A DNA stretch of 64,000 bases from a virus (Duplodnaviria > Caudoviricetes), in the IMG/VR virus record IMGVR_UViG_3300044454_000039, positions 2,176-66,175 of that record; one strand, given 5' to 3'. Positions 3,608 to 61,437 of the stretch are shown here, piece after piece. The stretch's first letter is position 1. Every line of letters begins with the position of its first letter. Under the pieces are notes generated by a model. It worked only from the letters and a program-made list of their open reading frames with translations. It was not told the DNA's origin and made no database searches. Position numbers and translations under genes: made by a program.

Positions 3608-3981
3608 TGAGCGATGTCGAGATGGTGGTGACTGATGGTCAAGATCAACCGGGCTTCGCGTCGGTGACGCGGATCGGGCAGATCTTGGCGCACATGCTAG
3701 GCGCGCTGGGCGTTGCGGGTGAGTTCTCCATATCCAACATGGGAGATTCCGCAATCGCATTCATCGTGACGACGCCGTGGGGTCAGTTCGCCATCTTCGA
3801 CAACGAGCACGATGACCACTGGAGCGCAGGCATGATGGTGGGCGATCAGATCCGCCGCGTGCCTGCGTGCGGTGCGTTGCACGATGTCATCCGGTTGCAT
3901 CTGTTGCTGGTACTGGACACGACGATCATGAAGGCAACGGCGTATCTGGATGGTTTGCCCCCGCCGCGCGAGATGCACTAG
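3607..3981 (+). CDS. hypothetical protein
   Basis: TAATG translational coupling. Confidence 0.7.
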   Translation: MSDVEMVVTDGQDQPGFASVTRIGQILAHMLGALGVAGEFSISNMGDSAIAFIVTTPWGQFAIFDNEHDDHWSAGMMVGDQIRRVPACGALHDVIRLHLLLVLDTTIMKATAYLDGLPPPREMH

Positions 3982-4035
3982 CGTGCGCAGGAGATAGTAG
4001 TCGCAGCAGTTGTAGCAGCACCCGTAGCACAACCC

Positions 4036-4066
4036 GTCAACATTCCAACTCGATTGGAAACTTGAC
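4036..4066. repeat. 31-bp dyad motif, copy 3
   Basis: GTCA-ACAT-TCCAAC-TCG-ATTGGA-AACT-TGAC, directly upstream of the AAA gene. Confidence 0.8.
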
Positions 4067-4085
4067 ACACTTGGAGACGCATATC

Positions 4086-5192
4086 ATGGCAACCATGCAC
4101 GACATGGACGTTATCGTCCGCCGCGCGTTGCGGTGCAAGTACAACGTGATGTTCAGGAGCCAGCCCGCGCTGGGCAAGACGTTCAAGGTGAACGAGATCG
4201 TGTCGGCGTTGCAGGCCGAAGATCCCGAGTTCTACTACGCGTATCTGGACGGCGGCACGCTGACCCCGCCCGACGTGGTGATGTCGGTGCCGGACATGCA
4301 GGAGTTCATGATCCGCAAGCTGGTGGACGGCACGTTCCCCAACTACTACAAGACGCCCGACGCGCACGGCATCATCTACGTGGGCGAGTGGATGTTGCAG
4401 GGCTTCGAAGTCAACAAGGGCACGCAGAAGTTGATCAACCACGAGGATGTGGGCGGCGGCTTCCGCTTGGCGCCCGGCATCATCATCGTGGCGGACGGCA
4501 ATCGCTTGAAGGACAAGTCCGGCGCGCAGGTGCAGTCGCGTGCGGTCATGAGTCGGTTCGAAACGTGGGAACTGGAATACGACACCGACTATGCGCTGGG
4601 AGTGATGCAGAACTTCCACGAGCGCGTGGGTGCGTTCGCGCTGCGCAACCCGATGGAGATCGACAACTACCGGGATGTGTTCGAGAACGAAGAGCGCAAC
4701 GAGAACGACGTGACGTATCAGGAAGGCAAGCAGGGCATTTGGGCCAGCCTGCGCTCGTGGGATCGCGTGAGCCTCAAGATGCGCGACGCCGATGCGACGG
4801 GTGTGCCGCTGATCCCCGGCGAAGTCTCGCGCAACGTCGGCACGGAAACTGCAAACAAGTTCACGGCATTCAACCAGATGCTCGACAACTTGGCCACGCT
4901 GGAGCAGATCATCCGCGAGCCGGTCAAGACGCCGGTCCCGCAGCGCATGGACGAGAAGTACGCACTGTCCACGATGCTCGCGCTGCTGGTCAAGCGTGAC
5001 AATTGGGAGCCCATCGCCAAGTACATGCAGCGCTACCCCGACGAGCAGCAGGCGTGCTACTTCAAGCTGATGAACGACCGGCTGGGCAAGGCGAAGGATG
5101 CCAACGACAGCTTCATCAAGTCCAGCAAGACGTACCAGTTGTGGATCACGGCGCCCCACATCCAGCGGTTGCTCAACGGCGCCACCGCGTAG
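4086..5192 (+). CDS. MoxR-like AAA+ ATPase
   Basis: Walker A-like SQPALGKT, Walker B-like IIYVGE, sensor-1 ADGN, Arg-finger SRF; GGAG RBS; linked to a vWA gene. Confidence 0.8.
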   Translation: MATMHDMDVIVRRALRCKYNVMFRSQPALGKTFKVNEIVSALQAEDPEFYYAYLDGGTLTPPDVVMSVPDMQEFMIRKLVDGTFPNYYKTPDAHGIIYVGEWMLQGFEVNKGTQKLINHEDVGGGFRLAPGIIIVADGNRLKDKSGAQVQSRAVMSRFETWELEYDTDYALGVMQNFHERVGAFALRNPMEIDNYRDVFENEERNENDVTYQEGKQGIWASLRSWDRVSLKMRDADATGVPLIPGEVSRNVGTETANKFTAFNQMLDNLATLEQIIREPVKTPVPQRMDEKYALSTMLALLVKRDNWEPIAKYMQRYPDEQQACYFKLMNDRLGKAKDANDSFIKSSKTYQLWITAPHIQRLLNGATA

Positions 5193-5226: not shown

Positions 5227-6114
5227 ATGAACACGACCCAACAATCCATGCATTCGCTGTTGCTGTACTCGCTCTACGCCCCGGCGTGGACGGCCCGCAA
5301 GCTGGACAAGAAGATCACGGCCGAGATCAAGGAACAGCACAACGTCGATTCCGACGTGGACGCTGGCAACTTCAACAAGTTCCTGCTGCCCGACTTCAAG
5401 GAACTGGCGGCGTGCAAGAGCTTCATCGGCAAGACCCGGCAGGAGTTCTACCTGCGCACGGCGCCGTGGGGCGAGCAGCGCGGGGCGCGCGTCGGCAAGG
5501 CCGAAGAGCACATGGAGATGCTGTCGTGGTTCGGTGATCGCGTCGAGGACTTCAAGCCCCTGAAGCGCGAGATGCTGGCCACGTACGCCGAGCACGTGGC
5601 GCTCGCCGAGTTCAAGCTGAACGAGATGTACGACCCGATGGACTACCCGTCCGTGGAGAAGGTGGACGCGAAGTTCCAGTTGCGCATGTCGGCGGTGCCG
5701 CTGCCCAACATCAACGACGTGCGGCTGTTGCAGGAGATCCCGCCGCACATCAGGGCGGACATCGAGGCGTCGATCACGGCGGACATCCAGAACAGCATCA
5801 CGGCCACGCTCACGCACGGGTTCCAGTCGCTCTACAAGCCCATCGCCCACATGGCCGACGTGCTGCACAAGTACAAGGAAGGCGAAGTGAAGCGGCTGTT
5901 CGACAGCGTGGTCGAGAACGTGCGCACGATGTCGGAGATGGCGCACAAGCTGAACATCAGCCGCGACCCGACGCTCGAAGCGTTCGCCATCGACGCGGGT
6001 AATCTGGTGGATCAACTCACGGCGAAGGATCTGCGCGACAGCGAAGGGATGCAGGCCATCGTCGGGCAGAAGGCGCGCGAACTGGCGGATCGGATCGCGC
6101 AATTCATGCCATGA
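5227..6114 (+). CDS. conserved helical phage protein (DUF3150-like) of AAA-vWA modules
   Basis: AGGAG RBS; WTARKLDK N-terminal motif; position between the AAA and vWA genes. Family name is from recall. Confidence 0.65.
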   Translation: MNTTQQSMHSLLLYSLYAPAWTARKLDKKITAEIKEQHNVDSDVDAGNFNKFLLPDFKELAACKSFIGKTRQEFYLRTAPWGEQRGARVGKAEEHMEMLSWFGDRVEDFKPLKREMLATYAEHVALAEFKLNEMYDPMDYPSVEKVDAKFQLRMSAVPLPNINDVRLLQEIPPHIRADIEASITADIQNSITATLTHGFQSLYKPIAHMADVLHKYKEGEVKRLFDSVVENVRTMSEMAHKLNISRDPTLEAFAIDAGNLVDQLTAKDLRDSEGMQAIVGQKARELADRIAQFMP

Positions 6115-6377
6115 GCACGCGTCGCAAGATGCGTCGCAAGCTGGCGAAGAAGCAGCTACTCGCGAAGGTACGGGAGATGGAGCGCAAGCTGTCTCCCGTC
6201 TACGCGATCCAGAAGAAGGACGGGTGGACTGCTGACCCGGCCCTCGACGGCATCTACGTGCCGCTGCGCTGGTCGAATCACTACGGCTGGGTGCATCAAG
6301 GCTTCACCAAGTTCACCAGTGCGGAGATGCACGAGTTGCGCCTGCCCGGCCGCGACTGCGAGTGGGTGATGCTATGA
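6111..6377 (+). CDS. small basic protein, LLxxVRxME family member 1
   Basis: ATGA overlap; KKQLLAKVREMERKLSP. Confidence 0.75.
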   Translation: MSTRRKMRRKLAKKQLLAKVREMERKLSPVYAIQKKDGWTADPALDGIYVPLRWSNHYGWVHQGFTKFTSAEMHELRLPGRDCEWVML

Positions 6378-6646
6378 GAATCCGCGAGACGGATCGCAGG
6401 ACGTACGTGGTGTTGACTGCGCGAGAGGCCAAAGAGATCGGCATCACGATCAAGAAGCAGCTTATCGTGCGAGGGATGGAAGTCCGCGTGTATCAGCCAC
6501 CCCCCGACGCGCAACCTGCACGCACGGTGTACACCATCGAAGAGGCGGTGCGGCTGTCGGAATTGATATTGGCTGGGGCACGGTGGTGCGAGTATGGACG
6601 CATGCACTTCCTTGCCGTGCTGCCGTGGAAGGTGCCGCCACTATGA
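6374..6646 (+). CDS. small protein, divergent LLxxVRxME family member 2
   Basis: ATGA overlaps at both ends; KKQLIVRGME. Confidence 0.7.
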   Translation: MRIRETDRRTYVVLTAREAKEIGITIKKQLIVRGMEVRVYQPPPDAQPARTVYTIEEAVRLSELILAGARWCEYGRMHFLAVLPWKVPPL

Positions 6647-6924
6647 AGCTGAGCCGCAAGCAGCGGAAGCAGCGGCGGTTGCTGCGCTTGGTGCGGCAGA
6701 TGGAAGCCAAGCTGCAAACCCCAAAGGTGCGAAAAGATCCGCGCGGCTGGGTGCCGTGGAAGTGGTACGTGGAGAGCAAGCAGTTGAACGAAGAGATGTT
6801 GCGGCGTGTTCAGCCTAGCAAGTTCATCACGTTGTTCGCAGGAGAATTGGGCACAGTAGAACGTGTCCGTATCATCAACTCAATCGGAGATGCAGATGAC
6901 AAGCGTAGCAAGAGTGAAGAGTAA
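6643..6924 (+). CDS. small basic protein, LLxxVRxME family member 3, with capsid-like segments
   Basis: ATGA overlap; RRLLRLVRQMEAKLQTP; segments RGWVPWK and GELGTVERVR resemble the MCP. Confidence 0.75.
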   Translation: MKLSRKQRKQRRLLRLVRQMEAKLQTPKVRKDPRGWVPWKWYVESKQLNEEMLRRVQPSKFITLFAGELGTVERVRIINSIGDADDKRSKSEE

Positions 6925-8482
6925 CCCGGCGATGCCGGACCCGAAGGCGGCAGGGGCAATCCTTGGCCACCAGAAGTTCGAGGGCATGAGCGAGACGGCC
7001 GTGCGTCTGATGTTGCGCGTGCCGTACATCATGGTGCTGTACTACAGCTTGACGTTCTATGTCACCAAGCTGATACGAACGCTGGCGGTCAACGGCGTGG
7101 CGTGCTGGATCAACCAACAGTTCTGGTCACAACTCACGCGCGATCAGCGGCTCACTGCTGTCGGGCACGAGATTGGCCACAAGATGTTGCTGCATCCGAC
7201 GCGTCGTGGGTCACGTGATCCGTACATCTGGAATGCGGCAGGGGATTACGTCATTAATCTGATGCTGGTGGAGTCGGGGTTCGTGCCGCTCACAAACTTG
7301 GTCATCGACGGGCAGCCGTGGTCATGGCTCTACGATGTCAAGTACAAGGGCATGACAACGGAGCAAGTCTACGAGGCACTGATCAAGGAGTATGACGATG
7401 CAGCAAGCAAGAAACCGAAAGAACCGCAACCGGGACAAGCTGCTGGCCCGCAAGGTGCGGGAGATGGAGACGATTCTGAATCCGCCGACGATGCCGACGA
7501 TGGCGAGGGAGAGGACGGTTCAGGAGATGGTGGATCTGCTGGCGAAGCAGATGATGGAGACGATGGAGCAGGAGAGGTACAAGATGCTGACGCAGGGAGC
7601 AACGCTGCGGGTGGATCTGTACCGGGCACAGGTGCAGGCGTACGCGGCCCAAGCACAGGCACAAGCGCAGGCAATGCCGCCGAAGTGGATGGCGAAGATG
7701 GTGATCCCGCCGACGATGGCCGCTCAGATGGCAGCCGTGATGCAGAAGCCAAGCTCGGACCCATGCGTGATCTGCTCGACTTCGGAACCGACCCCGAAGG
7801 GAACACGTACGAAGATCCTGAACGTGATGCGGAGAGTCCTGCACAGTTTGAAGAAAGGATGAAGCAGGAACTCGCGGCGGCCGAGCAGGTGGCGAAGATG
7901 AACGGCAAGACACCGGGCTGGATGAAGCGCGTGATGGCGAACGCGCAACACCAGAAGGTGCCATGGCCCGAGATCGTCGAGCAATACCTGAAGGGGCTGG
8001 TGCAGGCCGACTACTCGTGGCGTCGCTTCAGCAAGCGCGATCTGATCCGCATCGGCAGCATCTCGCCGGACATGTACGAGCCCGCCATGGGTGGCTTGCT
8101 GCTGCTGGTCGATTGTTCCGGCTCGATCACGGGCAAGATCCTCACGATGTTCGGCAGGCACTTCCGCGACGTGCTGGAGCAGGTGAAGCCGAAGTGGGTG
8201 GAAGTGGTGTACTTCGACACGCAACCGTACCCGCCGTACGAGCGCTTCGAGCGCGCGGAGTTCGACGAGGACACGGCGCGGCTCAAGCCTGCCGGTGGCG
8301 GCGGCACGGACTTCCGTTGGTTCGCCCAATACGAAGAGAACATGGACGAGGCGCCGGAAGTGGTGATGTGCCTGACTGATCTGGAAGGACCGGTCGGACG
8401 CGAGACGACGGCGCCGATGCTGTGGCTGTGCACGAGCAGCATCGAGGAAGCGCGGTACGGTGAAGTGATCAGCATCTCATAG
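6896..8482 (+). CDS. zincin metallopeptidase-like + vWA domain protein (DUF2201-like)
   Basis: HEIGH (HExxH), WNAAGDYVIN, acidic Gly/Asp linker, MIDAS DCSGS, GGGGTDF, LTD; GGAG RBS before ATG 6896. Confidence 0.88.
   Translation: MTSVARVKSNPAMPDPKAAGAILGHQKFEGMSETAVRLMLRVPYIMVLYYSLTFYVTKLIRTLAVNGVACWINQQFWSQLTRDQRLTAVGHEIGHKMLLHPTRRGSRDPYIWNAAGDYVINLMLVESGFVPLTNLVIDGQPWSWLYDVKYKGMTTEQVYEALIKEYDDAASKKPKEPQPGQAAGPQGAGDGDDSESADDADDGEGEDGSGDGGSAGEADDGDDGAGEVQDADAGSNAAGGSVPGTGAGVRGPSTGTSAGNAAEVDGEDGDPADDGRSDGSRDAEAKLGPMRDLLDFGTDPEGNTYEDPERDAESPAQFEERMKQELAAAEQVAKMNGKTPGWMKRVMANAQHQKVPWPEIVEQYLKGLVQADYSWRRFSKRDLIRIGSISPDMYEPAMGGLLLLVDCSGSITGKILTMFGRHFRDVLEQVKPKWVEVVYFDTQPYPPYERFERAEFDEDTARLKPAGGGGTDFRWFAQYEENMDEAPEVVMCLTDLEGPVGRETTAPMLWLCTSSIEEARYGEVISIS
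7398..7862 (+). CDS. overprinted gene inside the vWA linker, LLxxVRxME family member 4
   Basis: AAGGAG 7 nt before ATG 7398; DKLLARKVREMETILNP matches the family motif; G/C-ending codons in this frame; stop overlaps an in-frame vWA ATG at 7859. Confidence 0.7.
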   Translation: MQQARNRKNRNRDKLLARKVREMETILNPPTMPTMARERTVQEMVDLLAKQMMETMEQERYKMLTQGATLRVDLYRAQVQAYAAQAQAQAQAMPPKWMAKMVIPPTMAAQMAAVMQKPSSDPCVICSTSEPTPKGTRTKILNVMRRVLHSLKKG

Positions 8483-27808: not shown

Positions 27809-29725
27809 TCAGGCGGTGGCGGTTGCAAGCTCCCCGGCAAATGCCGTCAATCCGTTGAGCGCTGACGACGCTACGCTGTTGGCCACATTGGCGACATCGG
27901 TCACACCCTTGGCGGCGGCCAGCGTGGACTCCACCTGCGCCTTCCACTCGGCAAGATGCTGGTGCGCCTTCTCGATGTCGATCTGCGTTTCCACGGAGTA
28001 CATGCGCGCCATGAAGTCGCCCATGATCTGCGTGGCGCTGGCGTAGCCGCGAAGCTGCTCGGCGACCGCAGACCATTCCTTGCCGAAGGCTTCGATGCCG
28101 GTCGAGTACGCGCGCAACTGCCCATCGAGTTGAACCTGCCACGCCTTCAACGACTGCTCGTTCTGTCGGCCCACGGCGTCGATGTTCACCGCGATGGCCT
28201 TCACCTTCTCGCTCTCGGCTTCGATGCTGGCGCGATAGGCATTCACCGAGGCCGTGTACCCCGACACCTGCGCTTCGTACGCCTTGGCCCGCGCCATCTG
28301 GCCTTCGTTCGCCGCAGCGTACCCCTGCCACCGCGCCTTGTACGCCTCGATCTTCGCAGCGTAGGCACGCACCGCCGCCTCGTAGCCCATGATCGCGATG
28401 CGATCCGCTTCGAGCTTGGCCGTCTCGGCATCCACACCAACCTTGTACATCTCCACCAGTGCCTTGTTGGCGTTGACCATCGTCGCCAGCATTTCCACGT
28501 ACGCCTTATCGACTTCAGTCTTCGCCATCTCCGCGCGGATCTCGGCTTCGTACACGCGCACCTGCATCTCCAGCGCTTGCCACCGGGCCTTGTAGATTTC
28601 CACTGCGGCCTTATACCCCTCCCACTTGGCAAGATAGATCTGGATGTTCGCCTTGTTGATTTCCAGCATGCCGTTGAGCACGAGCTTGGTCATCTCGATG
28701 GCTTGACCGTTGGCTTCGGTGACGACCTTTGCGATGTCCACGGCGAACACCAGCAGCGTCGATTCCAACTTCACGCCTAGATCGAGCATGAACTTCATGT
28801 GGTCATGTTCGAGTTCCAGATTCTTGATCGCCGTATCCGTGGCCACCTTGCTGACGGCTTCCGCTGCCGTCTGCCGGGCTTCCCTCATTCCCGCGAGCAG
28901 TGAACCGGACGGCAGCAGCAATCCGCGCCGCGCCGCGCCTTCGAACACTTGCGCACCTGCGCGGCGTTGTTCCGCTGCCACGCGATCCGTGGCGCGCGTG
29001 ACGATGGCTTCCTCGATGGGCACCGGGATACCTGCGCCGCCCGTGTCGAAGTACGACGAGAGCACCGACTGGATCTTCGCGATCAGCGGGTTCTCCCCAA
29101 GCATCGCACGGTACCAGTCGAACCAGTGGCTCTTCACCAGTCGAGGGATCTCATCGGCGTAGTTCGCGTACGAGTCGCTGAGCGCGGCCAGATATTCCTC
29201 CAGCGACAACCACTGCAACTCCTGCGGCACCACGCCATCGAACACCGGGTTGGTGAGCACCGGGGCGTTCGGGATCGAGATCGTCTGGTACGGCAGCGTC
29301 GCGCTCGGCAGCGGCAGCAGCGCGGGCTGGCTGGGGAAGCTGGGTGTGTGCCGCTGTGGCATGCTGCCTGTGCCGTCCGAAGGCTCGCCACCCGGTGCGC
29401 CGGGGAAAGTGAGCACGGGCGCGGTCGGTATGTTCCCCGGCTTGCCGTCGAACTTCGGCTGGTACTGTGCGGGGTACTTCTCCATCACCGGCTCTTTCGG
29501 CGCGGCGCCTAGTGCCGGTTTGGACGGCGTGGCGAAGCTCGGATTGAAACCGATGATCGGCGCGCTCGGCGTCTGCCAATCGTACGGCTGGTACTCGAAC
29601 GACGAGGCGTTCGCGAACGATGCATACGCAGTCGCCAAGGCAGACTGCGCTTCGTTCTTCATCGTGTTGGCAGCGTTAAGGTGCTCGGTGAAGATGGCGT
29701 TGATAAGTTGCGACTCGGCGCTCAT
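27809..29725 (-). CDS. putative virion (ejection/tail) protein, Pro-rich then long coiled coil
   Basis: AGGAG RBS; repeated (V/I)xxY(K/R)A units; last gene of the late arm. Confidence 0.7.
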   Translation of the reverse strand: MSAESQLINAIFTEHLNAANTMKNEAQSALATAYASFANASSFEYQPYDWQTPSAPIIGFNPSFATPSKPALGAAPKEPVMEKYPAQYQPKFDGKPGNIPTAPVLTFPGAPGGEPSDGTGSMPQRHTPSFPSQPALLPLPSATLPYQTISIPNAPVLTNPVFDGVVPQELQWLSLEEYLAALSDSYANYADEIPRLVKSHWFDWYRAMLGENPLIAKIQSVLSSYFDTGGAGIPVPIEEAIVTRATDRVAAEQRRAGAQVFEGAARRGLLLPSGSLLAGMREARQTAAEAVSKVATDTAIKNLELEHDHMKFMLDLGVKLESTLLVFAVDIAKVVTEANGQAIEMTKLVLNGMLEINKANIQIYLAKWEGYKAAVEIYKARWQALEMQVRVYEAEIRAEMAKTEVDKAYVEMLATMVNANKALVEMYKVGVDAETAKLEADRIAIMGYEAAVRAYAAKIEAYKARWQGYAAANEGQMARAKAYEAQVSGYTASVNAYRASIEAESEKVKAIAVNIDAVGRQNEQSLKAWQVQLDGQLRAYSTGIEAFGKEWSAVAEQLRGYASATQIMGDFMARMYSVETQIDIEKAHQHLAEWKAQVESTLAAAKGVTDVANVANSVASSALNGLTAFAGELATATA

Positions 29726-42305: not shown

Positions 42306-42911
42306 CTAGACTGGACGTTCGATGTCCGTTGTCACGAGGAAACTGCCGGTGTAGATTGTCTCATGAATCCCGAGAGGGCTGATCATTTCCAGATCGTACA
42401 CCCCTCTCAGCCAACTGAACGCCTGCACATCCGCTGCCGCGATCAGTAGCGTGATGGTGTTCTCCACGGCGTCGATGTCGATGCCACCATCTTCCGTCGT
42501 CATTTCGAACAGCAGTTCGTCGGTCGCCGGATCGCGAATCTGCATCCGCGCTGTGTAGCCGGTAAGATCGACCGGTGTGTAGAACTGGAGATACCCCCCG
42601 CTCTTGTACGCGGAGAACCCCGCAGCGTTGATGACGTTGAGATCGACGTTATCGGGATCGACCTTCGTCACCTGCACCATCTCGGAGTCGTACGGTGGCG
42701 AGTGCTGCGCGTTGATCTCGTCCATGCCCACCACGCTCACCACCGCCGCGCGCCAGCCGGAAACAAGACCGTGCGACGGAGATGTCACCCGCGCCGGGGC
42801 CGAGCGTGCGATGGCCGTGATGGGCTTGTAGATGTACGGCGCCTGCTCCCACCGCACTACTCGGCGGAAGGTATCGCCCTGCCGTACGCTCATGTTCTGT
42901 CGTTGCATCAT
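42306..42911 (-). CDS. tail-associated protein (BppU N-terminal-like)
   Basis: QGDTF, PVDLTGYTARMQIR, GVYDLE motifs. Confidence 0.7.
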   Translation of the reverse strand: MMQRQNMSVRQGDTFRRVVRWEQAPYIYKPITAIARSAPARVTSPSHGLVSGWRAAVVSVVGMDEINAQHSPPYDSEMVQVTKVDPDNVDLNVINAAGFSAYKSGGYLQFYTPVDLTGYTARMQIRDPATDELLFEMTTEDGGIDIDAVENTITLLIAAADVQAFSWLRGVYDLEMISPLGIHETIYTGSFLVTTDIERPV

Positions 42912-44212
42912 GCCCTCTTATCGGTGTCCTTCAACGCCTGCTGTACCACCGCCCCCGCCATAGCCTGCGCGTTGGTCTGTGGGGTACCGTCAGTGAGGAA
43001 CGCGCTAATCGCCTTACGCTCGCCGAGCAGTTGCCCAATGAACCCTGCCAGCACAGGCAGTATCATAGGCACCCAATCGGGCATGTCAACTTTGAAGTAC
43101 GCGCCCACCGGCTTTGCGATCATCGACAGCAGCATCGCTACCCCGAGAATGATCCCGATGTTCAGTGTGAGCGACTGCACGTTGCGGAAGTAAGCCCGCA
43201 GCAGCTTGCCCCCGTTGGCCAGCGAGTTGATCCGCCCCACGGCTGCGTCCATGTTCACTTGTTGCTGCTTCGATGTCTCCATATCCATCGTGTGCACATC
43301 GCGGATGATGGGAGCAATCTTGTCCAGATAGTCGAGCGCGTGTTGCTGCAATTGGGCCACGAGTGCCGTGTTGTCTGCCTTGGCTTTCGCCAGCGCCGCG
43401 TACGCCTGCGCCGCAGCGGCCGGTTCGTTGGCGGCTGCGTTCTTGTTCGGATCGGGGCTCGCATCAACACCGGTCAGTTGCCCCAGCTTGGTGAACAGAT
43501 CCTTGGTGAACGCATCCGACACCGCAGGGGGCTGCTTGAGCACCCGCCCCAACTTCTCGGCCGCCAGCGGCTCGAACATGGAGAGGATGGTGGGTAGAAG
43601 TGCGGCGAGAAATCCCATGGATGCGTCTCCTGATGTCGTTATGTCTACCGGCCCAACTGGCGGGGGAAGCGGATCGGCCGGGGCGGGGACGGGTGCTGGT
43701 GGCTGATCGGGTGCAGGAGCGTCCGTAGCTGCCCCTCCGAAACGCGCGAATACTTCGCGGGCCTTCGCGACCGACCAACTGCGGAACGCGATCCATGTGT
43801 TGCTACACTTCTGGACTGCGCTCCATATATCGCCGTTCTCAATATCCCCAGCAGCATGATCTTCGATAGCCAGTTGGATGATGCCCAAATCCTGATTCAA
43901 TGGCGTGAATGAATTGTCGCCATCTCCGAAACCTAGCTGCTCCGCGATTCCCGCCCACGTAGTTCCTAAGAACTGCCCGGCGCCGCACGCGGTTGCGTGT
44001 CCGATCTTGGTCGTCGAGATACCGTGGAACGGATGACGCCACGGGGGCGGGGTGAAGTTGTGCCCGAAGCGCGCCCACAGTTCGCTGTTGTACAGCGTGT
44101 ACGCCGCGTCGTCGTGGCGGCCGGGCTCCGCTTCCTTGACGCACTCGATGAACGCTTTCCAGTTCGGATTCGCGTAGCATGCGGTTACACGGTCGAGGGC
44201 GAAGGTGCTCAC
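42908..44212 (-). CDS. lambda R-like lytic transglycosylase endolysin fused to a holin-like membrane domain
   Basis: KAF......E, TACGAGQFL..TW, FTP.NQD, CSNTW; Pro linker; C-terminal part with 2-3 hydrophobic helices. Confidence 0.75.
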   Translation of the reverse strand: MSTFALDRVTACYANPNWKAFIECVKEAEPGRHDDAAYTLYNSELWARFGHNFTPPPWRHPFHGISTTKIGHATACGAGQFLGTTWAGIAEQLGFGDGDNSFTPLNQDLGIIQLAIEDHAAGDIENGDIWSAVQKCSNTWIAFRSWSVAKAREVFARFGGAATDAPAPDQPPAPVPAPADPLPPPVGPVDITTSGDASMGFLAALLPTILSMFEPLAAEKLGRVLKQPPAVSDAFTKDLFTKLGQLTGVDASPDPNKNAAANEPAAAAQAYAALAKAKADNTALVAQLQQHALDYLDKIAPIIRDVHTMDMETSKQQQVNMDAAVGRINSLANGGKLLRAYFRNVQSLTLNIGIILGVAMLLSMIAKPVGAYFKVDMPDWVPMILPVLAGFIGQLLGERKAISAFLTDGTPQTNAQAMAGAVVQQALKDTDKRA

Positions 44213-44682: not shown

Positions 44683-47600
44683 TCATTGTCCGAAGTTGTA
44701 GTTCTGAAGTATGGGGTACATGCGAGGCGATGTTAGCACGCCTGTTCCACTCACTTGCGCTGTGGCCCGTTGCGCTGCCCGCTCACGCATACCACCTGCC
44801 GGATTGATGGCCAATTGCGGATGCCGCATCGAGAAATCAGCCGACTGCTGCATTAGCTCGTCCAGATCCGCATACTGCTGGTGATCGTGCGCGAGATAAA
44901 TCTGGTTGCGAATTCGCCCCTGCTGTGTCTGCATCAACTCCACGTTGGTCTTGTACTGGAACGTGCGCTCCTGCTGCTCGGCGCGTGCCCCGCTCTCCAA
45001 CCCCAGCGCTTGCGTGAACACGTTCCACGCCGTCGCCGGTCCTTCCGGCAGGGGAATCTGATTGTTGCCGGGCGACGTGCTCTCGTAGCCGTACTTGTTG
45101 AGCCGGTACGCCTTCGCCAGATTGCGCACTTCCGCAGGCAGCGCGTCGTTGATGAACTTGGGGTAGTTGTGATCGTAGAGCGCGCGGAGCCCTGTCCACA
45201 GCCCGGCGCCCACACCCACGGCCGGACCCATCAGTGCCAGCGAGCCGTCCTTGATCTTGTCGTCGATCCGGCGCCGACTCGCGATGAACTCGCTGAACGG
45301 CAACAGATCTTGGAAGCCCGACCGGGACGACATGTCGATGTCGATGGCGCGCGGCAACCCCCGCGACGCGATCTCTCCACCCTTCGCACCGAAGATGTCG
45401 GCCATGGTTTGCCGGAACGCGTGCTGCACATCGGGCGGCGTTTCGTTATCGTCCTGCGTCCACGACAACACCTGATTCGCAATCGCCGTCGCCAGCGACA
45501 CGAAGGGCAGCCCCAACGTACCCGCGATGGCTGCCGTCGTCGCACCCATGCCCACGAGCCCCGCTATCGCTTCCTTGCGTTCGGCAGGCGTGCTGTGCTT
45601 CGAAATTATTTTCATCGCTTCGCGAATCGTGAGTTCGCTCTGCTGGATGTCGAACTGGCCGAAGCCCACCACCAGCGGTGTGAATCCGCCGAGAACCCCG
45701 CGCCGCCCCAGCTTGCGCGCGATGTTCGCTTGCGAGTGATCGCCATCGGTGTCGCGCACGATTTGCAGCGCGTACTGCCGCGCCGAATCCAGCGTCGCCC
45801 CCGTAGTCTTCTTCATGTGCATCTCGTGCGCCGTCAGCGCCGCCACCATTCGGTTGATGATCTCGATGTAGTGCGGCGCAATGGTGGAGAGATTGACGAG
45901 CTTGCGCCCCATTGCCTGATCTTCTGGCGCGAAACGGGCGAACTGGTTAGTCTGTCCGAAGTTGAAGAGCCCGGCCCAATTTACCCCTTCCAGCGCGTTG
46001 AGATCGTTGCGGTTGAGCAGCGGTTGCCCCCGCCCGTCTTGCAGCTTCGAAAACTCGAATTGCAGCGACGCCAAGCTGGCGAGCTTGTCGAACGTCGAAA
46101 GTCCGCGCACGCCGGGGTCGGCCCATCCCATCTTCAACAACTGGTTCAGGACACCCGCCGCCTTCGAGTAGTTGCTGATCATCGAGCGGAACGAATCGGC
46201 GTAGCCGTAACGCTTGCCCACCATGGGCAGCGTAATCTGCGTCGCTTGGTAGCCGATCATCATCATGTACGCAGGCGAGAGCATCAGCCGCCACGCTGCC
46301 GGAATCACGCGAATGCGGTCGAGCACCGGGGTGTGCACCGGAGTCATGGAGTCGTTCACACGCCCGCGCAACTCGTTGGTGTAGACAGCCACGTCGGCCG
46401 CGAACTTCGCCATGCCCGGCGTCGGGTCGCGATCCAACCCCTGCTTCGCCTTCATCAGATCGAGCATCGCCTGCGTGAGTTCCGGCCCGGCATACGAGTT
46501 CACCAGCCCGCCCTTTGCCGAAGTCAGTCGATCCGCGTAGGTGTTGATGAAGTCCTTGCTGTAACCAACGTCGCCGTCACGGAACATCTTCGCCTTTAGT
46601 GGCGATGTCTCAGGCAACGACAACAGGTAGGCATCCTGCAACTCGCGCACCATGTTGCGCTTTGTTTCCGCATCGTAGGCATCGTTATTGTTGATCTTGT
46701 TTTCCATGATGCGTACGAACTTGGGCGATGTCTGCTCCAGCTTACGGAACGCCTCGTCCGCCTTCCCGGCCGCCCACGTCGGCTTGCCCGTCTCTGCCTC
46801 ACGGAACAACGTGCTCTCAAACGGCAGCAGCGCATCCACAGCCTGCTTGAACTTCATCGGATCGTCGAACCGCATGTACACTTTACGGTTGTCACGATAC
46901 GGCGACCCCCAGCCCCGGTTCAACTGCTGGTCAACGATACGCCCGATCTGGTCCCACTCGGCCTGCCCGCCGCCGACAGTGAACTTGACCACATATTCGC
47001 CGGAACGACCAAGGTGGAAGTAAGGCACTGACATGTGGTACTTGTACGTGCCCCACAGGCTATTCAACGCATCTTTCACTTCCATATGGTCGATGAGATG
47101 CGGCGCCGCCTTTCTGGCCGCTGCATCCCACGCCTTCGTGATGTTGCCCTTGGTAGTACCGAGCGACTGCGCCAAGAATGCATCGTGCGCATCCATCACT
47201 TCGTAGATGGCTTTGTCCAGCAACAACTGCGCTTCGTTGAACGGCTTGTTGCGATAGACTTCCGAACGAGCATCCAGTCGGTCGTACGGTAGACCGTTAG
47301 GCAGCGTGCCTTTGCGCACCTGCGCGAGCGCCGGATGATCCGCCAGCTTGTATTCATCCAGCAAGTGCTTCACACCTGCTGCCAGATCGCGGGTGTAATC
47401 GAGCGAGTGCTTATCGAGCATGTCGCGGTACAGCTTGACCGGCGTGTCCGCCGTGCGATCTCTCGCCAGCATCGCCCGCGACTCGCGCTCCAGATCGGAG
47501 TACATCGCCCGTAGCTTCTGCCCGTCCGCCGAATCCCACTGCTCGCGCGTGAAGTTCGGGTCACGCTTCTTCGCATCCTCGAACGTCTTCATCGCCGGGT

Positions 47601-50600
47601 CGAAGCCGAGACGCGTCGCCTCGCTGCCCATGCGGAAGAGCTTGTCGGCAGTGTTAGGGGCGAGCTTCGCGAAGCGCGCCATACGTGTCGTAAGACGGTT
47701 GCCCTCTTGCGTCAGATAGCCACCCCACGCCGTCTTGCCGCCGATGATCTCGCGGATCTTGCGGTAGTTGTCCACGAGCGACTGAATCTTCGCCGCAGCC
47801 GCGCCGGGCATCGCCCGCATGGCCTGCTGCGCCCGGCGATCCAGCATATGCGTGACATGGTTGTTCGTCGCCCACGTGAGCGCAGTCGCGAGTATCTTGT
47901 GCGGCCAGTCGCCCTCGTACATCTTGTCCTTGAACGCGAGCTTGGGAGAGATGCTGGCCAGCGAATTGAACCACTCGCTCATGTGCCCGGCCGGGCCACG
48001 GTTGTAGACTTCCTTCGAGGCGTGGTCGGGGTCGCCGAAGAGCGTGGACGCCGCCTTCATCAGCTTCTCCACATCCGGCGCATGCGTGGGCTCGAAGCCG
48101 AACCACGCTGTGATCTTGCTGTAGAGTTTGCTGAGCCACCCCCGGTTGTCGAGCGCTTCCTGTACGTGCGGGTTGTTGATCGCTTCCGCCAAGAACTCGT
48201 GCTCGCTTTCCATCGCAAGCCGATGCGCCGGGTCGTCGAAGTCGGCTACCTTGCCGAACGAATCCATCAGCCCGCGCACGGTGCGCAGCGCGGACACGCC
48301 TGCCTTCTCCTGCTTGCTGAGCGATTCGAACGGCTTGCTGACGTTCGCCATCGCTTCGGTCAGCATCTTGTGCGTCAACGCGTGCACCGACTCGTGCATC
48401 AGCGTCAGGTTGTTCATCCCCCCTTGGCCGATCTCGATGGTGTCTGTCGCCGGGACATACCGGCCGCCCTTGAAGTCGGCATTCTCGACTTCGACGATGT
48501 TCGCCGTAAGACGAGAATCGGCGAGCAGTCGCGCGATGGCGCGCACGACCGGGTTGCGATGGCGCCGGGCAATGTCCGCCATGGCCGCCATTGCGCTTGG
48601 GTTGGCCCGCACCCGCTCGGCTATCGCCGGATCGCTGATTCCCTCGATGCCGCGTCTGTGCTTGATCAGCGCTTCCCGCGCGGCCTTCGCCTGCTGCACC
48701 GCCGCCTCGTCCATCTGCGGGGCGTACAGCTTGTCCACCATGTCGTGCAACTTCAGTTCGTCGTCCTTCGTGAGTCCTTTGTGCGGCTCTCCCGTCACCG
48801 GCTTCATCGCGGCTTCGGTGCGCTTCGCAAGTTCACGATCACTGATCTCGCCACGCTCGCGCTGCTGCGCAAGTTTCGTCAGTCGCAGCTTGAACACTTC
48901 GTCCCGCAGCCGTTCCTTCTCCACGGCCGCGCGCTGCGCTGCTTCTTCGGCCGCAGCCTCGTCGCGTTCCGCCATGCGCTGCTCCCGCATGCGATCCGCT
49001 TTCTCCCGCGCACTGGAAAACAGCCCCAGCCGGTCCGAGATCTCGTGCGCTTCGAACCAGCGCTCGGCCATGTAGTCGAGCCGTTTGTCCTGCCCGCTGG
49101 CCACAGTGTCCGCATGCGCTGCCTGAATCTCTTCCATCGCCTGCGTGGTCGGTCGGGCACGTTTGCCCATACCGGCCTTTTCCATCTGCTTCAGGATCGC
49201 CTGCTGCCGCTCCGTGGCTTTACCGAGATGCACCAGCGACGACAGCCACGCGTGGATGATGTCACCCTGCGCGTCAATGCCCCGCACCGCACTCACCGGC
49301 TTACGCCAGTACGCCGGTGTTTCCATCGGCTCTTCGCCGCCCTTTAGATAGGGCTCGGTCTTGGCGTGCGCTCTTTCCGCACGGCCTACAGCGTCAGAGT
49401 GCGCGGCAAACTCAGCAAGCGTGTCACGCTCCATCGTAAGCGCATCAATACGTGCATGCACATCGTTAAGCGCTTGTACTTGCTCTTTCGTTGGCCGTCT
49501 GCCGGGGTTCTCAAATATGTCAGCATTGAGCTTCGATAGCTCGCGTCGAGCCACAAGCAGATCGCTCTGCTTGGCATCCAGCGCTGCCTTCGCTTCAGCT
49601 ACTTGCCTTTCGGCTTTGGCGACGGCATCCCCACGCCCTTGCCCTTGGATCGTCCCGTCCGGCGCGCGTTGTTCAACGCTATCGCGACCACCTGCTTCCG
49701 TGGGCGCCCGGTTTTCGACAGCTCCCTGACGTTCGCCGATATTGCCATCGGATTGTTCCCCGGCTGTAGTGGCATCTTCTTTCCCCTTCGCTATACGTTC
49801 CAGTTCCGCACGCGCCTGCGGGTTGTCCCCCGGCGCAGCATTCAAACGCTCCAGATGCGCTTGGGCGTCTTCCGGTGTTATTTCCACTACAACCTTCTTG
49901 TCACCACCCATTAGCCGCTGCCACTGCGATTCAAGACGCAGGCCAGCTTCAATCTTGTTTTGCTGTTGCACCCGCGCAGTAGCGCCGCTCAGTTCGTTGG
50001 TACCCTCGGGTGCCGCAAGCGATGCTGCTACCGACGCCGCGTCGGCTGGTGCTGCGGTTTCTCTTGCGCCTGCGGCGACAGGGGCGCTTTCGGGGGCACC
50101 ATTCCGTGCATCTTCATGTACTTGACCACCAGTGACGGCAGCTTCGGCATCCGTACGGGCGGCTGCGACGGGCTCGGTCCCCGTTTTGACTGCGGCGGCA
50201 TTTGCATTGTCGGCTTCCTCTTTCGCCTTACGTTCAGCTTCCACAACGTCGGACAGCTTCTTACCCGTCAGCTTCTCGTAGAACGTATCCAGATGCTCCA
50301 GATACTTCGGCTTCTTGTTGTCAGGACCGACGTTCTTCTCTTCCCACACCGCGCGGATTTCCGCCGCCAGATCCTCACCCTGCTTGTCCACCATCCGACC
50401 AAGAACTTCGCCCGGCGCGCGGGGTAGATCCTTGCGCAAGGCGCGGATCTTTTCTTCCTTGGTTGGCGGGGCGACGTAATCCGTGCTCGGCCCGACGTTC
50501 CGGTCGCGCACCCAATTCTCGCCGCGCGGCTCCCCGGCCCATGGCGGGCCGCCCAAGCGCAGCCGTTCGGCGAGCGCAGCAGCGGGCGCCCCTTCCCCGC

Positions 50601-54778: not shown

Positions 54779-55816
54779 TTACGCCGTGCACGCGACTTCG
54801 GCACGGACCATGAACGCATCCTGAAGGATGATCGCCGACTGCCACGCCTTCCAGCCGACCGTGCCCCGCTGACCGAGCGGGTCGCCCGCCGCAGGCTTCG
54901 GGTTGACGACCATCGGGACGATGGAATCCTTGCCCCGCAGCGGCACGATGCCGTACGCGTCGCGGGCAATGTACAGGATCGGGTACACGTCGGCATTGGT
55001 GCCCGTCGTGGACCGCATCGCGCCCTTGGCGCCGCCACCATCCGCGAACGGCGAGAACACCGTGGACGTGAGATAGCGCACACGCTCGACGGCGCCGATC
55101 TCGTTCTCGTACGGCGTCACCGTGCCGTACTGCTTGGTCGAGATGAACCCGGCCATGGAACGGATGTCGGTTTCGCCATCGGGGTGCACCAACCCGATGT
55201 ACGCGGCTTCGACCGGTTCCGTGCGGAAGTCCGGCGTGCTCTTGAGCGCCTGCGTGATGAACTTGGCGTTCTGCCGGTTGAGCGCGGTAGTGATCTGCCG
55301 TTGCAGCCCCAGCGTGATCGGCGTGTTCACGTCGGTCCGCAATGAGCCGTTGGCGAGGAACACGTTCGTGCCCGCCTTCAGGATGTTGTAGCGCACCGTC
55401 TCCAGCGTGAGCGCTGCCTGCTCGCTCATGATCTGCGTGGCTTCGCGCAGCACCGGGTCTTCGTGGGTGTCTTCCACCACGTCGGTGATGCCGACGAAAT
55501 CACCGTACTGGTGAAGCTGGACGGTGTAGTCCGCGTACGTCAGGCGCGAGCCGGTGGGCGTCACACCTTCGACCAGCGGCGTCGTCGCGAGCGGCACGTA
55601 GAACGGCTGCCCTTGCGTACCGGCACCGGCCGCACCCGTCGCTCCCACGAGGAAGTAACGACGGAACTTCGCGGTCTGCGTGTTGTTTTGCGGGATCGGG
55701 TATTGCTGCCCGAACTTTTCGATCACCATGTACGGCATCGCGCGGGTCAAGAGATCCTTGACCACGTACGCTGCGGTACGGGGGGTGATGTCCCCATAGA
55801 GCACGGTATTCGACAT
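54779..55816 (-). CDS. major capsid protein, N4-gp56 family
   Basis: KFRRY, LVEGVTP, QYG, HPD, EIG....VR, DPLGQRGTVGWK. Confidence 0.92.
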   Translation of the reverse strand: MSNTVLYGDITPRTAAYVVKDLLTRAMPYMVIEKFGQQYPIPQNNTQTAKFRRYFLVGATGAAGAGTQGQPFYVPLATTPLVEGVTPTGSRLTYADYTVQLHQYGDFVGITDVVEDTHEDPVLREATQIMSEQAALTLETVRYNILKAGTNVFLANGSLRTDVNTPITLGLQRQITTALNRQNAKFITQALKSTPDFRTEPVEAAYIGLVHPDGETDIRSMAGFISTKQYGTVTPYENEIGAVERVRYLTSTVFSPFADGGGAKGAMRSTTGTNADVYPILYIARDAYGIVPLRGKDSIVPMVVNPKPAAGDPLGQRGTVGWKAWQSAIILQDAFMVRAEVACTA

Positions 55817-56155: not shown

Positions 56156-57199
56156 CTAGCCGCTACGCAACGCTTCTGCCCACGCACCATCAAAATCGCT
56201 GGCATCCGCTGCTGTGACCGGGGTAGTACGTTTCGATCCGACAACTTGCAGCTTGCCCGCCGCTTTCTTGGCTGCCGCTGATAGGACTGTCGAGTTTGGT
56301 GCCGGGGAGTTACCAGCAGGAGCGCCCGCACCCGCGCGTCCTGCGACTGCTGCACCAGTGGCCGCTTGATTGGTCCCTGTTGCTCCAGTCGATTGCTTGT
56401 ACGTGTTGATCAATTCAGACACTTCCTGCGGCGTGCCCGACTTCATTACTTCCTGCGCGCCGCGCCGGAACGCTGCGGGCAGTGTCTCTACCCATGCGAC
56501 GACGTTATCGTACACGTCGTCGTAGTCGTTGTGCTCACCCCGAATGGCCGAGAGGGCAAGCTGTTCCTGAATGGTGTGCGACAGTTCCGCGAACTGCTCC
56601 AGCGTCGGATTGTAGACGCGGGCTAGTTGCGCGAACACATACTCGGCGACGTTGTACGCGGCTTGCTTGGTGACAACCTGCGTCGCCTCGAAGATGTCCG
56701 GCCAATCCTTCTTGAACGCGTCAAGCCGGGCGACTTCATCTTCGTTGGGTTGGTACCACTTCGGCTCGGGGGGAGCCGCAGGAGCACCGGCTGACACCGT
56801 ACCCTTGTCGGCTCCCCCGGCCTCACCCCCGACAGGAGTCTTCTCGGCAAGCGCCTTGAACGCCGCATTCTCGGCCCGTAGCCGGGTTAGCTCCGCGTCT
56901 TCGGTCGCCGCTGGTGCTGCCGCAGGCGCGGGGGCTGCCGTATCCGTGGCGGACGCAGCAGCGGCTTCAACAGCAGCAGCGGCGGCTTCCCCTTCGCCAG
57001 CGGGAGCACCTGCGCCAGCCGCACCATCACTCGTGGCACCCACGTCGCCAGCAGCATCGGCAGCGTCAGCCGTCTTGTCCCCTTTGATCGGGTCTTGAGC
57101 GGTAGCGCCAGTGGTGTCTGTCGGCGTCGGTTTCGCATCAGCAGCCAGAGCTTCAGCGAACGCATCGTCGAAGGTTTGTGGGGTCTGCTCGGTTGCCAT
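56156..57199 (-). CDS. capsid scaffolding protein
   Basis: Acidic, Ala-rich, FDDAF/FDGAW termini, between portal and MCP. Confidence 0.75.
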   Translation of the reverse strand: MATEQTPQTFDDAFAEALAADAKPTPTDTTGATAQDPIKGDKTADAADAAGDVGATSDGAAGAGAPAGEGEAAAAAVEAAAASATDTAAPAPAAAPAATEDAELTRLRAENAAFKALAEKTPVGGEAGGADKGTVSAGAPAAPPEPKWYQPNEDEVARLDAFKKDWPDIFEATQVVTKQAAYNVAEYVFAQLARVYNPTLEQFAELSHTIQEQLALSAIRGEHNDYDDVYDNVVAWVETLPAAFRRGAQEVMKSGTPQEVSELINTYKQSTGATGTNQAATGAAVAGRAGAGAPAGNSPAPNSTVLSAAAKKAAGKLQVVGSKRTTPVTAADASDFDGAWAEALRSG

Positions 57200-59943: not shown

Positions 59944-61437
59944 CTAACGCATGTGGTAGGGGTTGGTGAAGGTTGGCAGTGTACCAATTTCCCGCCGCCG
60001 CATCTCTCCACGTAGTCCTTTGGCGAAGTATTTGCAGAGATACCCAAAGGCATCACCGGGGTGACTATAGTCGTTTTTCAGCGGTTCCGCAGCAGTGTCC
60101 CCCTTCAGCGACTTGCCGTAGCGCCACCCGCTGCGCAGCGCTCGTATAAGCGACTTGCATCGCGGATCTATCAGCAGCGCTGGTCCCATAGGGGTAAGTC
60201 GTGTGGTGTATTGCTCGATGGCATCGACGCGCCCCGGCAGCCGATTGTTCATGTCGGGAATCTTCACCGGGTAATACTTGCGCACCACCTGCAACACTGT
60301 CTGCTCGTTCGTCTGCCCCCGCTGCGTGGACGCCGGGTCAGGCGAGATGGTCAGTTGCGCCTGCGGGAAGCGAATGCGCATCAACGGCTGCACACACGTG
60401 GTGATGAAGCGCTGCGCGCCCATATCCCGCTTGACCAGTTCATCGAGCACCAGCAACCGGCCGTGCATGTCCAGTTGCCCGAAGATCATCGCGCAATTCA
60501 TGCCGGGGTCGTACCCTGCTACAAGGGGTAAACCGGACTGGTACAGCAGCGGCTTCTTCGCCACGTGCAAGTCGTGGTTGAACGTGTTGATGACCGGCGT
60601 GCCGGAAATCGAGTAGCCCCATTCGACGCCGATGTACTGCCGCACCCACGCATCGCCGTGATCCTTCGCGAGCGCGGTGTAGTACGCCGGGCCGCCCGGC
60701 AAGTTGTTCAGATTCTCCGCATCGGGGCCGTTGCCCGGTGGCTGCTGGAAGTACGTCCAGTTGGTCGCCTTCGGCGGCGCTCCAGTGGCCAGTCGGATCT
60801 CGGAGTCGCGCACCTGTGCAGCGAGCGTCTGTTCCGGCGTGAGCGGTGCCATGCTGAACTGCTCGGCATTCTGCAACGCTTCGTACCACCAGTCGTCTTC
60901 GTTGCCGGGGTTGGATGAGCCCCACATGCCCCAATTCGTCGCGCCGCCATCCTTCTGCGACGGGAAGCGCCCGCAGCGCGCGGCGAGCGCGTCTACGATT
61001 TCCTTCGGGATCTGGACGAACTCGTCGATGATCGCGAACGTGGTTTCGAGCGAGAGCACACGTGCCACGTCGTCTGGAGTATCGAGTGCTCGAAAGAGAA
61101 CTTCACACTCAACGTCGGCGAACTTGAGCACGAAGCGTTTGTCCGTCGCGTGCCACGAGCCTGCTTCGCCATTCTTGAACCAGATGTTCCACGAGACGAT
61201 GGTGGTGTCGGTCAACTGCGGCGCCGTGTTACGCACGACCACCGCCCGCACGCGTCGCTTGCCGTCCACGGGCGACGGTATCTGCTTCGACGCGAGATAG
61301 ACGAGCTTGAAGAAAATGCCGGTGGTCTTGCCGGACCCGACCGGGCCGATGATCCAATCCGCGAAGAACTGGCGCGGCTTGTGGTGCTTGATGAATTCCT
61401 TGACCGTTGGCGCCGGGTTGTAGTCGATGATCGCCAT
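59944..61437 (-). CDS. terL: terminase large subunit
   Basis: GPVGSGKT, VVRNT, IIDE, SNP, nuclease GYDPG, DPA, HPGDA. Confidence 0.93.
   Translation of the reverse strand: MAIIDYNPAPTVKEFIKHHKPRQFFADWIIGPVGSGKTTGIFFKLVYLASKQIPSPVDGKRRVRAVVVRNTAPQLTDTTIVSWNIWFKNGEAGSWHATDKRFVLKFADVECEVLFRALDTPDDVARVLSLETTFAIIDEFVQIPKEIVDALAARCGRFPSQKDGGATNWGMWGSSNPGNEDDWWYEALQNAEQFSMAPLTPEQTLAAQVRDSEIRLATGAPPKATNWTYFQQPPGNGPDAENLNNLPGGPAYYTALAKDHGDAWVRQYIGVEWGYSISGTPVINTFNHDLHVAKKPLLYQSGLPLVAGYDPGMNCAMIFGQLDMHGRLLVLDELVKRDMGAQRFITTCVQPLMRIRFPQAQLTISPDPASTQRGQTNEQTVLQVVRKYYPVKIPDMNNRLPGRVDAIEQYTTRLTPMGPALLIDPRCKSLIRALRSGWRYGKSLKGDTAAEPLKNDYSHPGDAFGYLCKYFAKGLRGEMRRREIGTLPTFTNPYHMR

Follow-up and report, generated by a model that had tools for sequence, protein, structure and literature searches.

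We found that a 154-aa open reading frame (ORF), lying in the +1 frame inside a phage gene for a DUF2201 metallopeptidase-vWA protein, is very probably a real gene, and our data indicate that it is a member of an undescribed small-gene family located beside a MoxR ATPase/vWA pair. The DNA analysed here, referred to as the window, is a stretch of 64,000 nucleotides, numbered 2176-66175 in a virus record of 66,175 bp (genome G000) that occurs in sediment metagenomes. Domain and profile searches place genes for an ATPase, the DUF2201 metallopeptidase-vWA protein, a polymerase, a helicase and a primase on the plus strand, and genes for the terminase, the portal, an N4-gp56-family capsid protein and further virion proteins on the minus strand. 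The closest capsid protein from a cultured phage is that of Pseudomonas phage Rollin (49%). Coordinates of the features discussed are collected in Table 1.

Table 1. Features of the window that bear on the nested ORF and its family (MCP, major capsid protein; TerL, terminase large subunit).
Feature	Position	Strand	Remarks
ATPase ORF upstream of the vWA gene	3867..5192	+	phrog_1297 ATPase, E 3.7e-29
Conserved gene downstream of the ATPase and upstream of the mini genes	5227..6114	+	homologues in 4/6 related genomes
Stand-alone mini gene with family leader	6111..6377	+	88 aa
Mini gene without basic leader, with terminase-insertion-like helix	6374..6646	+	ATGA overlaps with both neighbours
Stand-alone mini gene with leader and MCP-like segments	6643..6924	+	93 aa
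Host gene of the nested ORF: DUF2201_N metallopeptidase (HExxH), acidic linker, DUF2201 vWA	6896..8482	+	linker about 7391-7753
Shine-Dalgarno-like AAGGAG	7385..7390	+	7-nt gap to the nested ATG, as in L002 and L165
Nested ORF in the linker, +1 frame	7398..7862	+	154 aa
Family leader: Arg/Lys-rich start and VxxME..L.P-type helix	7398..7487	+	nested residues 1-30
MCP-like segment	7509..7607	+	nested residues 38-70; resembles MCP residues 120-152
Segment with Tyr heptads (YxA), similar to the coiled coil of the 638-aa protein	7572..7682	+	phrog_10969; common with stand-alone homologues
638-aa coiled-coil structural protein with Tyr heptads	27809..29725	-	phrog_10969, E 5.6e-43; best model segment 28514-28600
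MCP, N4-gp56 family	54779..55816	-	TIGR04387, E 4e-91
MCP model segments	55370-55453, 55064-55120 and N-terminus	-	
Helix in clade-specific TerL insertion	60784..60825	-	leader-like

The host gene of the nested ORF is assigned to the DUF2201 metallopeptidase-vWA proteins by PF13203 (E 5e-35) and PF09967 (E 1e-14), with a HExxH motif that is invariant in the alignment, and it may start at 6890, 6896 or 6932. Together with the upstream ATPase gene, whose true start is probably near 4086, it belongs to a MoxR ATPase/metallopeptidase-vWA module (phrog_1297 and phrog_1314). We call the ATPase MoxR-like by its context with the vWA-peptidase, a label taken from the available text of PMC7824862. Homologues of the vWA-peptidase in N4-like phages (phrog_1314) are widely labelled 'HNH endonuclease', which is likely a misannotation. 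A long gene-poor stretch (positions 1-2175 of G000 followed by 1-770 of the window) precedes the first early genes, and a CAATCGGATTGGAG-like motif, possibly representing phage promoters, recurs between early genes. A promoter and terminator scan was not clearly above shuffles (2 against a mean of 1.2, and 4 against 4.5).

A preliminary description of this locus had proposed an open +1 frame with its own ribosome-binding site, a stop codon overlapping a vWA-frame start codon, a codon usage opposed to that of the surrounding linker and an N-terminus shared with the mini-proteins 6111 and 6643 encoded upstream, and our analysis agrees with it on each of these points. The nested ORF, which is open throughout and preceded by an initiation signal of its own, has a second in-frame ATG upstream of its start, at 7392, and its TGA (7860-7862) overlaps the in-frame vWA ATG at 7859. 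Because the linker is hydrophilic and built of G-first codons, chance alone would keep the +1 frame open at P=0.74 when codons are recoded synonymously, and the AAGGAG reads Lys-Glu in the vWA frame. Openness and ribosome-binding site alone therefore prove little, and the case for a gene is carried by the codon skew, by homologous loci and by stand-alone homologues. The further suggestion that the overlap at 7859 couples translation of a stand-alone vWA fragment is unsupported, as this ATG has no spaced Shine-Dalgarno (SD) sequence, the corresponding Met is Leu in the homologue P0003, and the nested stop in the related locus L002 has no overlapping ATG. A conserved ATGA-type internal start giving a C-terminal vWA product was also rejected, since the overlap in locus L165 sits at a different Met.

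Within the overlap, the vWA frame has a GC3 of 0.43, against 0.78 and 0.87 in its flanks, whereas the +1 frame reaches 0.81, and 16 of the 23 Asp codons in the linker are GAT, compared with 38% genome-wide. Relative to the flanks of the vWA gene itself, the linker has a GC3 of 0.40 where 0.73 is expected (z -8.3), and sliding-window analysis of 24 genes ranks it lowest (z -8.7; next gene -6.8). The +1 frame of the linker encodes hydrophobic residues above expectation (z 5.1). We found that this constraint on the synonymous positions of the vWA frame extends to the other loci with a homologous nested ORF (z -3.8 in L002 and -3.6 in L165), whereas four linkers without such an ORF range from -0.2 to -1.7. 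L099 is a counter-example, since its linker GC3 is low (z -5.7) yet it contains no SD-led +1 ORF of at least 60 aa, and L167 reaches z -4.1 without a nested ORF. Other low-GC3 zones of the window lie on the minus strand at 44683-51975 (codons about 580-700, z -6.7), 56156-57199 (z -5.8) and 42908-44212 (z -6.3); the shifted frames of these three contain stops or Pro/Arg-rich runs and no convincing nested gene. From its start, the scaffold gene has about 100 codons without a stop in the +1 frame. For a frame-specific dN/dS, the two homologous nested ORFs have diverged too far to be aligned by codon. Contigs from 4 of the 24 runs listed for the virus record hold no variants, cluster members are identical across the linker, and no RNA dataset is among the 24 runs.

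Homologous loci were drawn from 92 non-redundant DUF2201 genes that had an HMM match, both motifs and a linker zone of at least 30 codons. An SD-led +1 ORF of at least 60 aa occurs in the linker zone of four of them. In three (the window, L002 and L165) it starts 77-79 codons past the HExxH and has a leader score of 19.6-24.0, while the fourth scores 0.8; start and protein motif are thus kept in 3/92 loci, all from one clade. That clade (100/99) comprises 18 long-linker proteins in a tree of 41 rows, and the vWA proteins of the three phages share only about 45-50% identity. In P0002-P0005, available as protein sequence only, the start of the linker is compatible with the same SD-ATG. Tyr (TAC) codons in the +1 frame require that a linker Val be followed by P, Q, R or H, and this is the case for 11/13 Val in P0001-P0005, which are relatives rather than independent samples, compared with 5/39 in the other 29 homologues scored (P0017 lacks the anchor motif). 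The Val footprint in the P0003 linker has a 7-residue spacing. Among distant DUF2201 genes, L061, L041 and L169 contain +1 ORFs of 113-155 aa that begin with ATG and do not pass the SD and leader filter. We consider that the SD-ATG-leader arrangement conserved in two relatives, together with the stand-alone homologues, supports the nested gene proposed in the preliminary description.

The stand-alone homologues define the family. In the window, positions 6111-6924 carry three mini genes joined by ATGA stop/start overlaps, the last of which overlaps the vWA start. Stand-alone genes with the leader of the nested ORF lie upstream of the vWA gene in the window (6111 and 6643), L166 and L167, and downstream of it in L165; all 10 family members are inside, directly upstream or directly downstream of the vWA gene. 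A leader profile built from five stand-alone genes of other phages only placed mini 6643 first (25.2) and the nested ORF second (23.2) among 132,202 six-frame windows of G000, the next match scoring 18.2, and its top match among 122,042 windows of G001 was the L002 nested ORF. None of 1000 shuffles equalled the nested leader. Furthermore, L167:2844-3041, which was retrieved by its leader alone, also matches the nested payload (41% over 41 aa, E 3e-7). In G002-G006 (G003-G006 being distant members of the clade) the vWA gene is present and the leader gene was not detected. Since stand-alone homologues share both leader and payload, we rejected a de novo overprinted gene; it is more likely that a family module nested in, or grew within, the linker. 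Payloads vary between members, and at least three of the 10 (L165 nested, mini 6111 and L166:1176) have no virion match.

Two other groups of short ORFs were seen. An ELLLAG-type helix resembling the TerL insertion, without a basic start, occurs at 6374-6646 of the window, L165:189-515, L166:1358-1534 and L167:3394-3597, all of which adjoin the vWA gene. In the early arm of G002, L160:4425-7200 is a run of short ORFs that start with MIL or MIP.. and contain much Ser-Arg-Ser-Gly-Trp; they seem to form a repeated small-gene family with no relation to the leader and mini-gene family.

Databases hold little that resembles the nested protein. It is absent in exact form from a 15-billion-protein collection that contains two of its neighbours, a word-index search returned nothing usable, the ESM Atlas search was blank, and tblastn against cultured phages gave only E=9. 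An HMM search of 1.84 billion proteins with a six-member alignment returned only 3 proteins, all from the input family.

The nested protein had also been described as carrying segments that look like virion proteins, namely a YxA stretch and a capsid-like helix; we found the YxA likeness to be supported, while the helix is borderline on its own. Nested residues 49-92 match phrog_10969 (E 6.7e-4), the family of the 638-aa protein, whose Pseudomonas phage homologues are annotated 'structural protein'. When 10 family members and 45 control ORFs (some of them mis-framed, including three of 6-40 aa, and one family-related) were compared with 32 core-protein profiles from 7 genomes, 4/10 members and 0/45 controls fell below a Bonferroni value of 0.02, all on the MCP or the 638-aa protein; two of the 45 controls fell below 0.05. 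In this comparison the nested Tyr-heptad segment has a Bonferroni value of 0.001. The Tyr-heptad match recurs in three of the 10 members, all among the four below 0.02, at residues about 373-404 of the 638-aa protein. The family profile has no significant match to the structural-protein profile (E 0.1), and a search of solved structures with the 638-aa protein gave only E 0.27-0.45. Relatives' versions of the 638-aa protein match the YxA segment better than the phage's own, which ranks 5-6 of 6.

For the capsid-like helix, the 28-residue alignment between nested protein and MCP holds, with 8/28 identities and only 51% DNA identity. We take MCP residues 120-152, from the HK97 fold, to be a long helix. 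With a 77-sequence MCP profile, nested residues 38-70 obtain a score of 41.3, which none of 200 shuffles reached (HMM E 1.8e-6 as a single comparison), and share up to 11/33 identities with relatives' MCPs. Against this, the pairwise E is 0.017 and the Bonferroni value 0.053, and a junk frame scores 42.2 in the genome-wide six-frame comparison. Library MCP profiles (TIGR04387 and phrog_1357) do not match the nested protein. The match nevertheless gains support because other members match other MCP segments. Residues 62-80 of mini 6643 resemble MCP residues 233-251 (Bonferroni 0.002), a specific non-repeat motif, and its residues 50-66 resemble the MCP N-terminal region. For this N-terminal region, which was picked after the first match was seen, shuffles did as well in 0/500 cases for the L002 nested protein, 5/500 for L167:3007 and 8/500 for mini 6643. 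Among the 77 MCPs, the phage's own ranks 26 for the helix segment, where relatives' MCPs match better, 5 for the mini 6643 beta segment and 3 for the L002 N-terminal segment. No solved-structure match was found for the MCP. The nested protein is not itself an HK97-fold capsid protein: only a 33-residue segment matches, and AlphaFold2 predicts long helices and no globular fold (mean pLDDT 83.7, pTM 0.36).

The family leader shows a suggestive resemblance to a clade-specific terminase insertion. This TerL insertion of 20-30 residues is found in G000, G001, G002 and some close relatives, and the 58 distinct segments listed mostly lack it. A profile of five TerL insertions aligned in register on the leader helix of 8/10 members (1 to 127 of 2000 shuffles), the nested protein and mini 6643 being the two not in register, and its top six-frame match in G000 was mini 6374..6646. 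With each phage's own insertion as a single query, mini 6111 came first in G000, but at 26 against noise of 25, and in G001 the nested ORF was not retrieved. The leader is closer to the insertion of the close relatives L298/L303 than to its own. A recent DNA copy of virion genes was rejected, since family segments share 51-59% DNA identity with their model segments and no long blastn match was found within the genome; any copying must therefore be old or selected at the protein level. On balance, the payloads probably derive from virion genes rather than from convergence.

We hypothesized, tentatively, that the small-gene products are made early and act as decoys for host sensors that recognise phage structural proteins, a reading drawn from sequence comparison to which we give somewhat less than an even chance. 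The nested ORF is very likely translated from its internal SD on the early-arm mRNA. The family module would have entered, or grown inside, the linker in one vWA subclade, where its G-ending codons would give an acidic linker of G/D/E/A when read in the vWA frame, so that both frames stay open. Its helical products would bind to defence proteins that sense peptides but leave them inactive, and would do so ahead of the accumulation of the real virion proteins. According to the available portions of the cited papers, MCP and terminase are known defence triggers (PMC13728456; PMC11564622), DSAD1 blocks DSR2 by competing with its tail-tube trigger (PMC11263360), and a phage MoxR ATPase is required against the defence DS-28 (PMC13716836). 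Compared with a trigger competitor of the DSAD1 type, the family shows segment-level likeness to the MCP, the structural coiled coil and the terminase insertion, with a profile-profile E of 0.1. In the available text of PMC13581612, Avs sensors are described as contacting core folds, whereas variable extensions are not bound. This speaks against decoys made of short segments where sensors of this class are concerned, so that the targets of decoys would have to be peptide-reading sensors. In its fullest form, in which mosaics of the phage's own terminase, MCP and structural epitopes, one of them frame-nested in a peptidase, would saturate bacterial pattern-recognition sensors as early multi-target decoys, the proposal is rather doubtful.

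Alternatively, the ATPase/vWA-metallopeptidase pair might process virion proteins or act as their chaperone, and the small proteins might serve this pair as pseudo-substrates or adaptors, with nesting keeping regulator and enzyme together. All ten members lie in or directly beside the vWA gene, in keeping with this reading, and a role in virion assembly or processing has been proposed for the MoxR and peptidase-fused vWA proteins of jumbo phages (available text of PMC7824862). We nevertheless consider it unlikely: G002 and the distant G003-G006 have the vWA gene and no detected leader gene, the pair sits on the arm opposite the virion genes, and the sole experimental role of a phage MoxR that we found, in the accessible part of PMC13716836, is anti-defence.

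It is similarly improbable that the family is real but shares only an N-terminal targeting or nucleic-acid-binding leader, acting like the T4 internal-protein signal, with helical payloads that are virion-like by amphipathic convergence. The payloads are indeed heterogeneous, their matches are short and mostly helical, the profile-profile comparison is weak, and diverse anti-defence proteins with common N-terminal packaging signals exist (PMC13716836, available text). Convergence, however, does not readily account for the specific non-repeat motif that links mini 6643 to the MCP, nor for three members landing on the same stretch of the structural protein and three on the MCP N-terminus.

Dominant-negative fragments that jam assembly or packaging in co-infecting related phages, in the manner of satellite interference proteins, are quite unlikely. 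It is true that relatives' proteins give the nested MCP-like and YxA segments higher scores than the phage's own proteins do, and the leader is nearer to the L298/L303 insertion; older capture followed by drift, however, would yield the same ranks, the mini 6643 beta and L002 N-terminal segments rank their own MCP high, and self-poisoning would require control. Least probable, and very unlikely, is that there is no second gene, the ORF being a by-product of an acidic, G-rich linker in which codon selection is relaxed: chance openness, low-GC3 linkers or zones without a nested ORF (L099, the giant virion gene and the scaffold gene) and the lack of a database homologue of the nested protein itself fit this, but the same-position SD-ATG and leader in three phages with vWA proteins this divergent, the homology to stand-alone genes and the Tyr-heptad footprint in homologous linkers do not.

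Overprinted viral genes in disordered regions are known, for example phiX174 E in D (PMC8227390, available text). The nested ORF resembles such overprints in encoding a second protein in a shifted frame within a low-constraint, disorder-prone region of an older gene, and differs from the classical de novo cases covered in the accessible part of that source in having stand-alone homologues beside the same gene in relatives. Like DSAD1, as described in the available portion of PMC11263360, the decoys would be small phage proteins competing with the virion-protein trigger of a sensor; unlike DSAD1, the mini-proteins show sequence-level pieces of several virion proteins, and competition is here a proposal. 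Pfam, PHROGs and NCBIfam searches gave no family match to DSAD1. The mini-proteins further recall T4 IPI-III and Bas37_0260, diverse small proteins sharing only an N-terminal motif and tied to anti-defence, whereas virion-like payloads are not mentioned for the T4 internal proteins (both points from the available text of PMC13716836). Compared with the MoxR/vWA pair of jumbo and N4-like phages, the pair described here has a long acidic linker that holds a second gene, and flanking mini genes. In the main text of open-licence literature we found neither a nested gene in DUF2201 linkers nor a family of virion-segment mosaics, and the anti-defence principle suggested for the nested gene and mini family is possibly new.

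Taken as sequence evidence, our data give good support to a long gene of a dsDNA phage that lies nested within another and is overlooked by gene callers, and suggest that some 'acidic linkers' may be the shadow of a second protein. The family offers short, defined segments of capsid, terminase and structural proteins that were apparently selected as copies. If these are decoys, the segments would indicate which epitopes are read by host sensors, and the anti-defence strategy that they represent could be mined by self-similarity searches in phage genomes.
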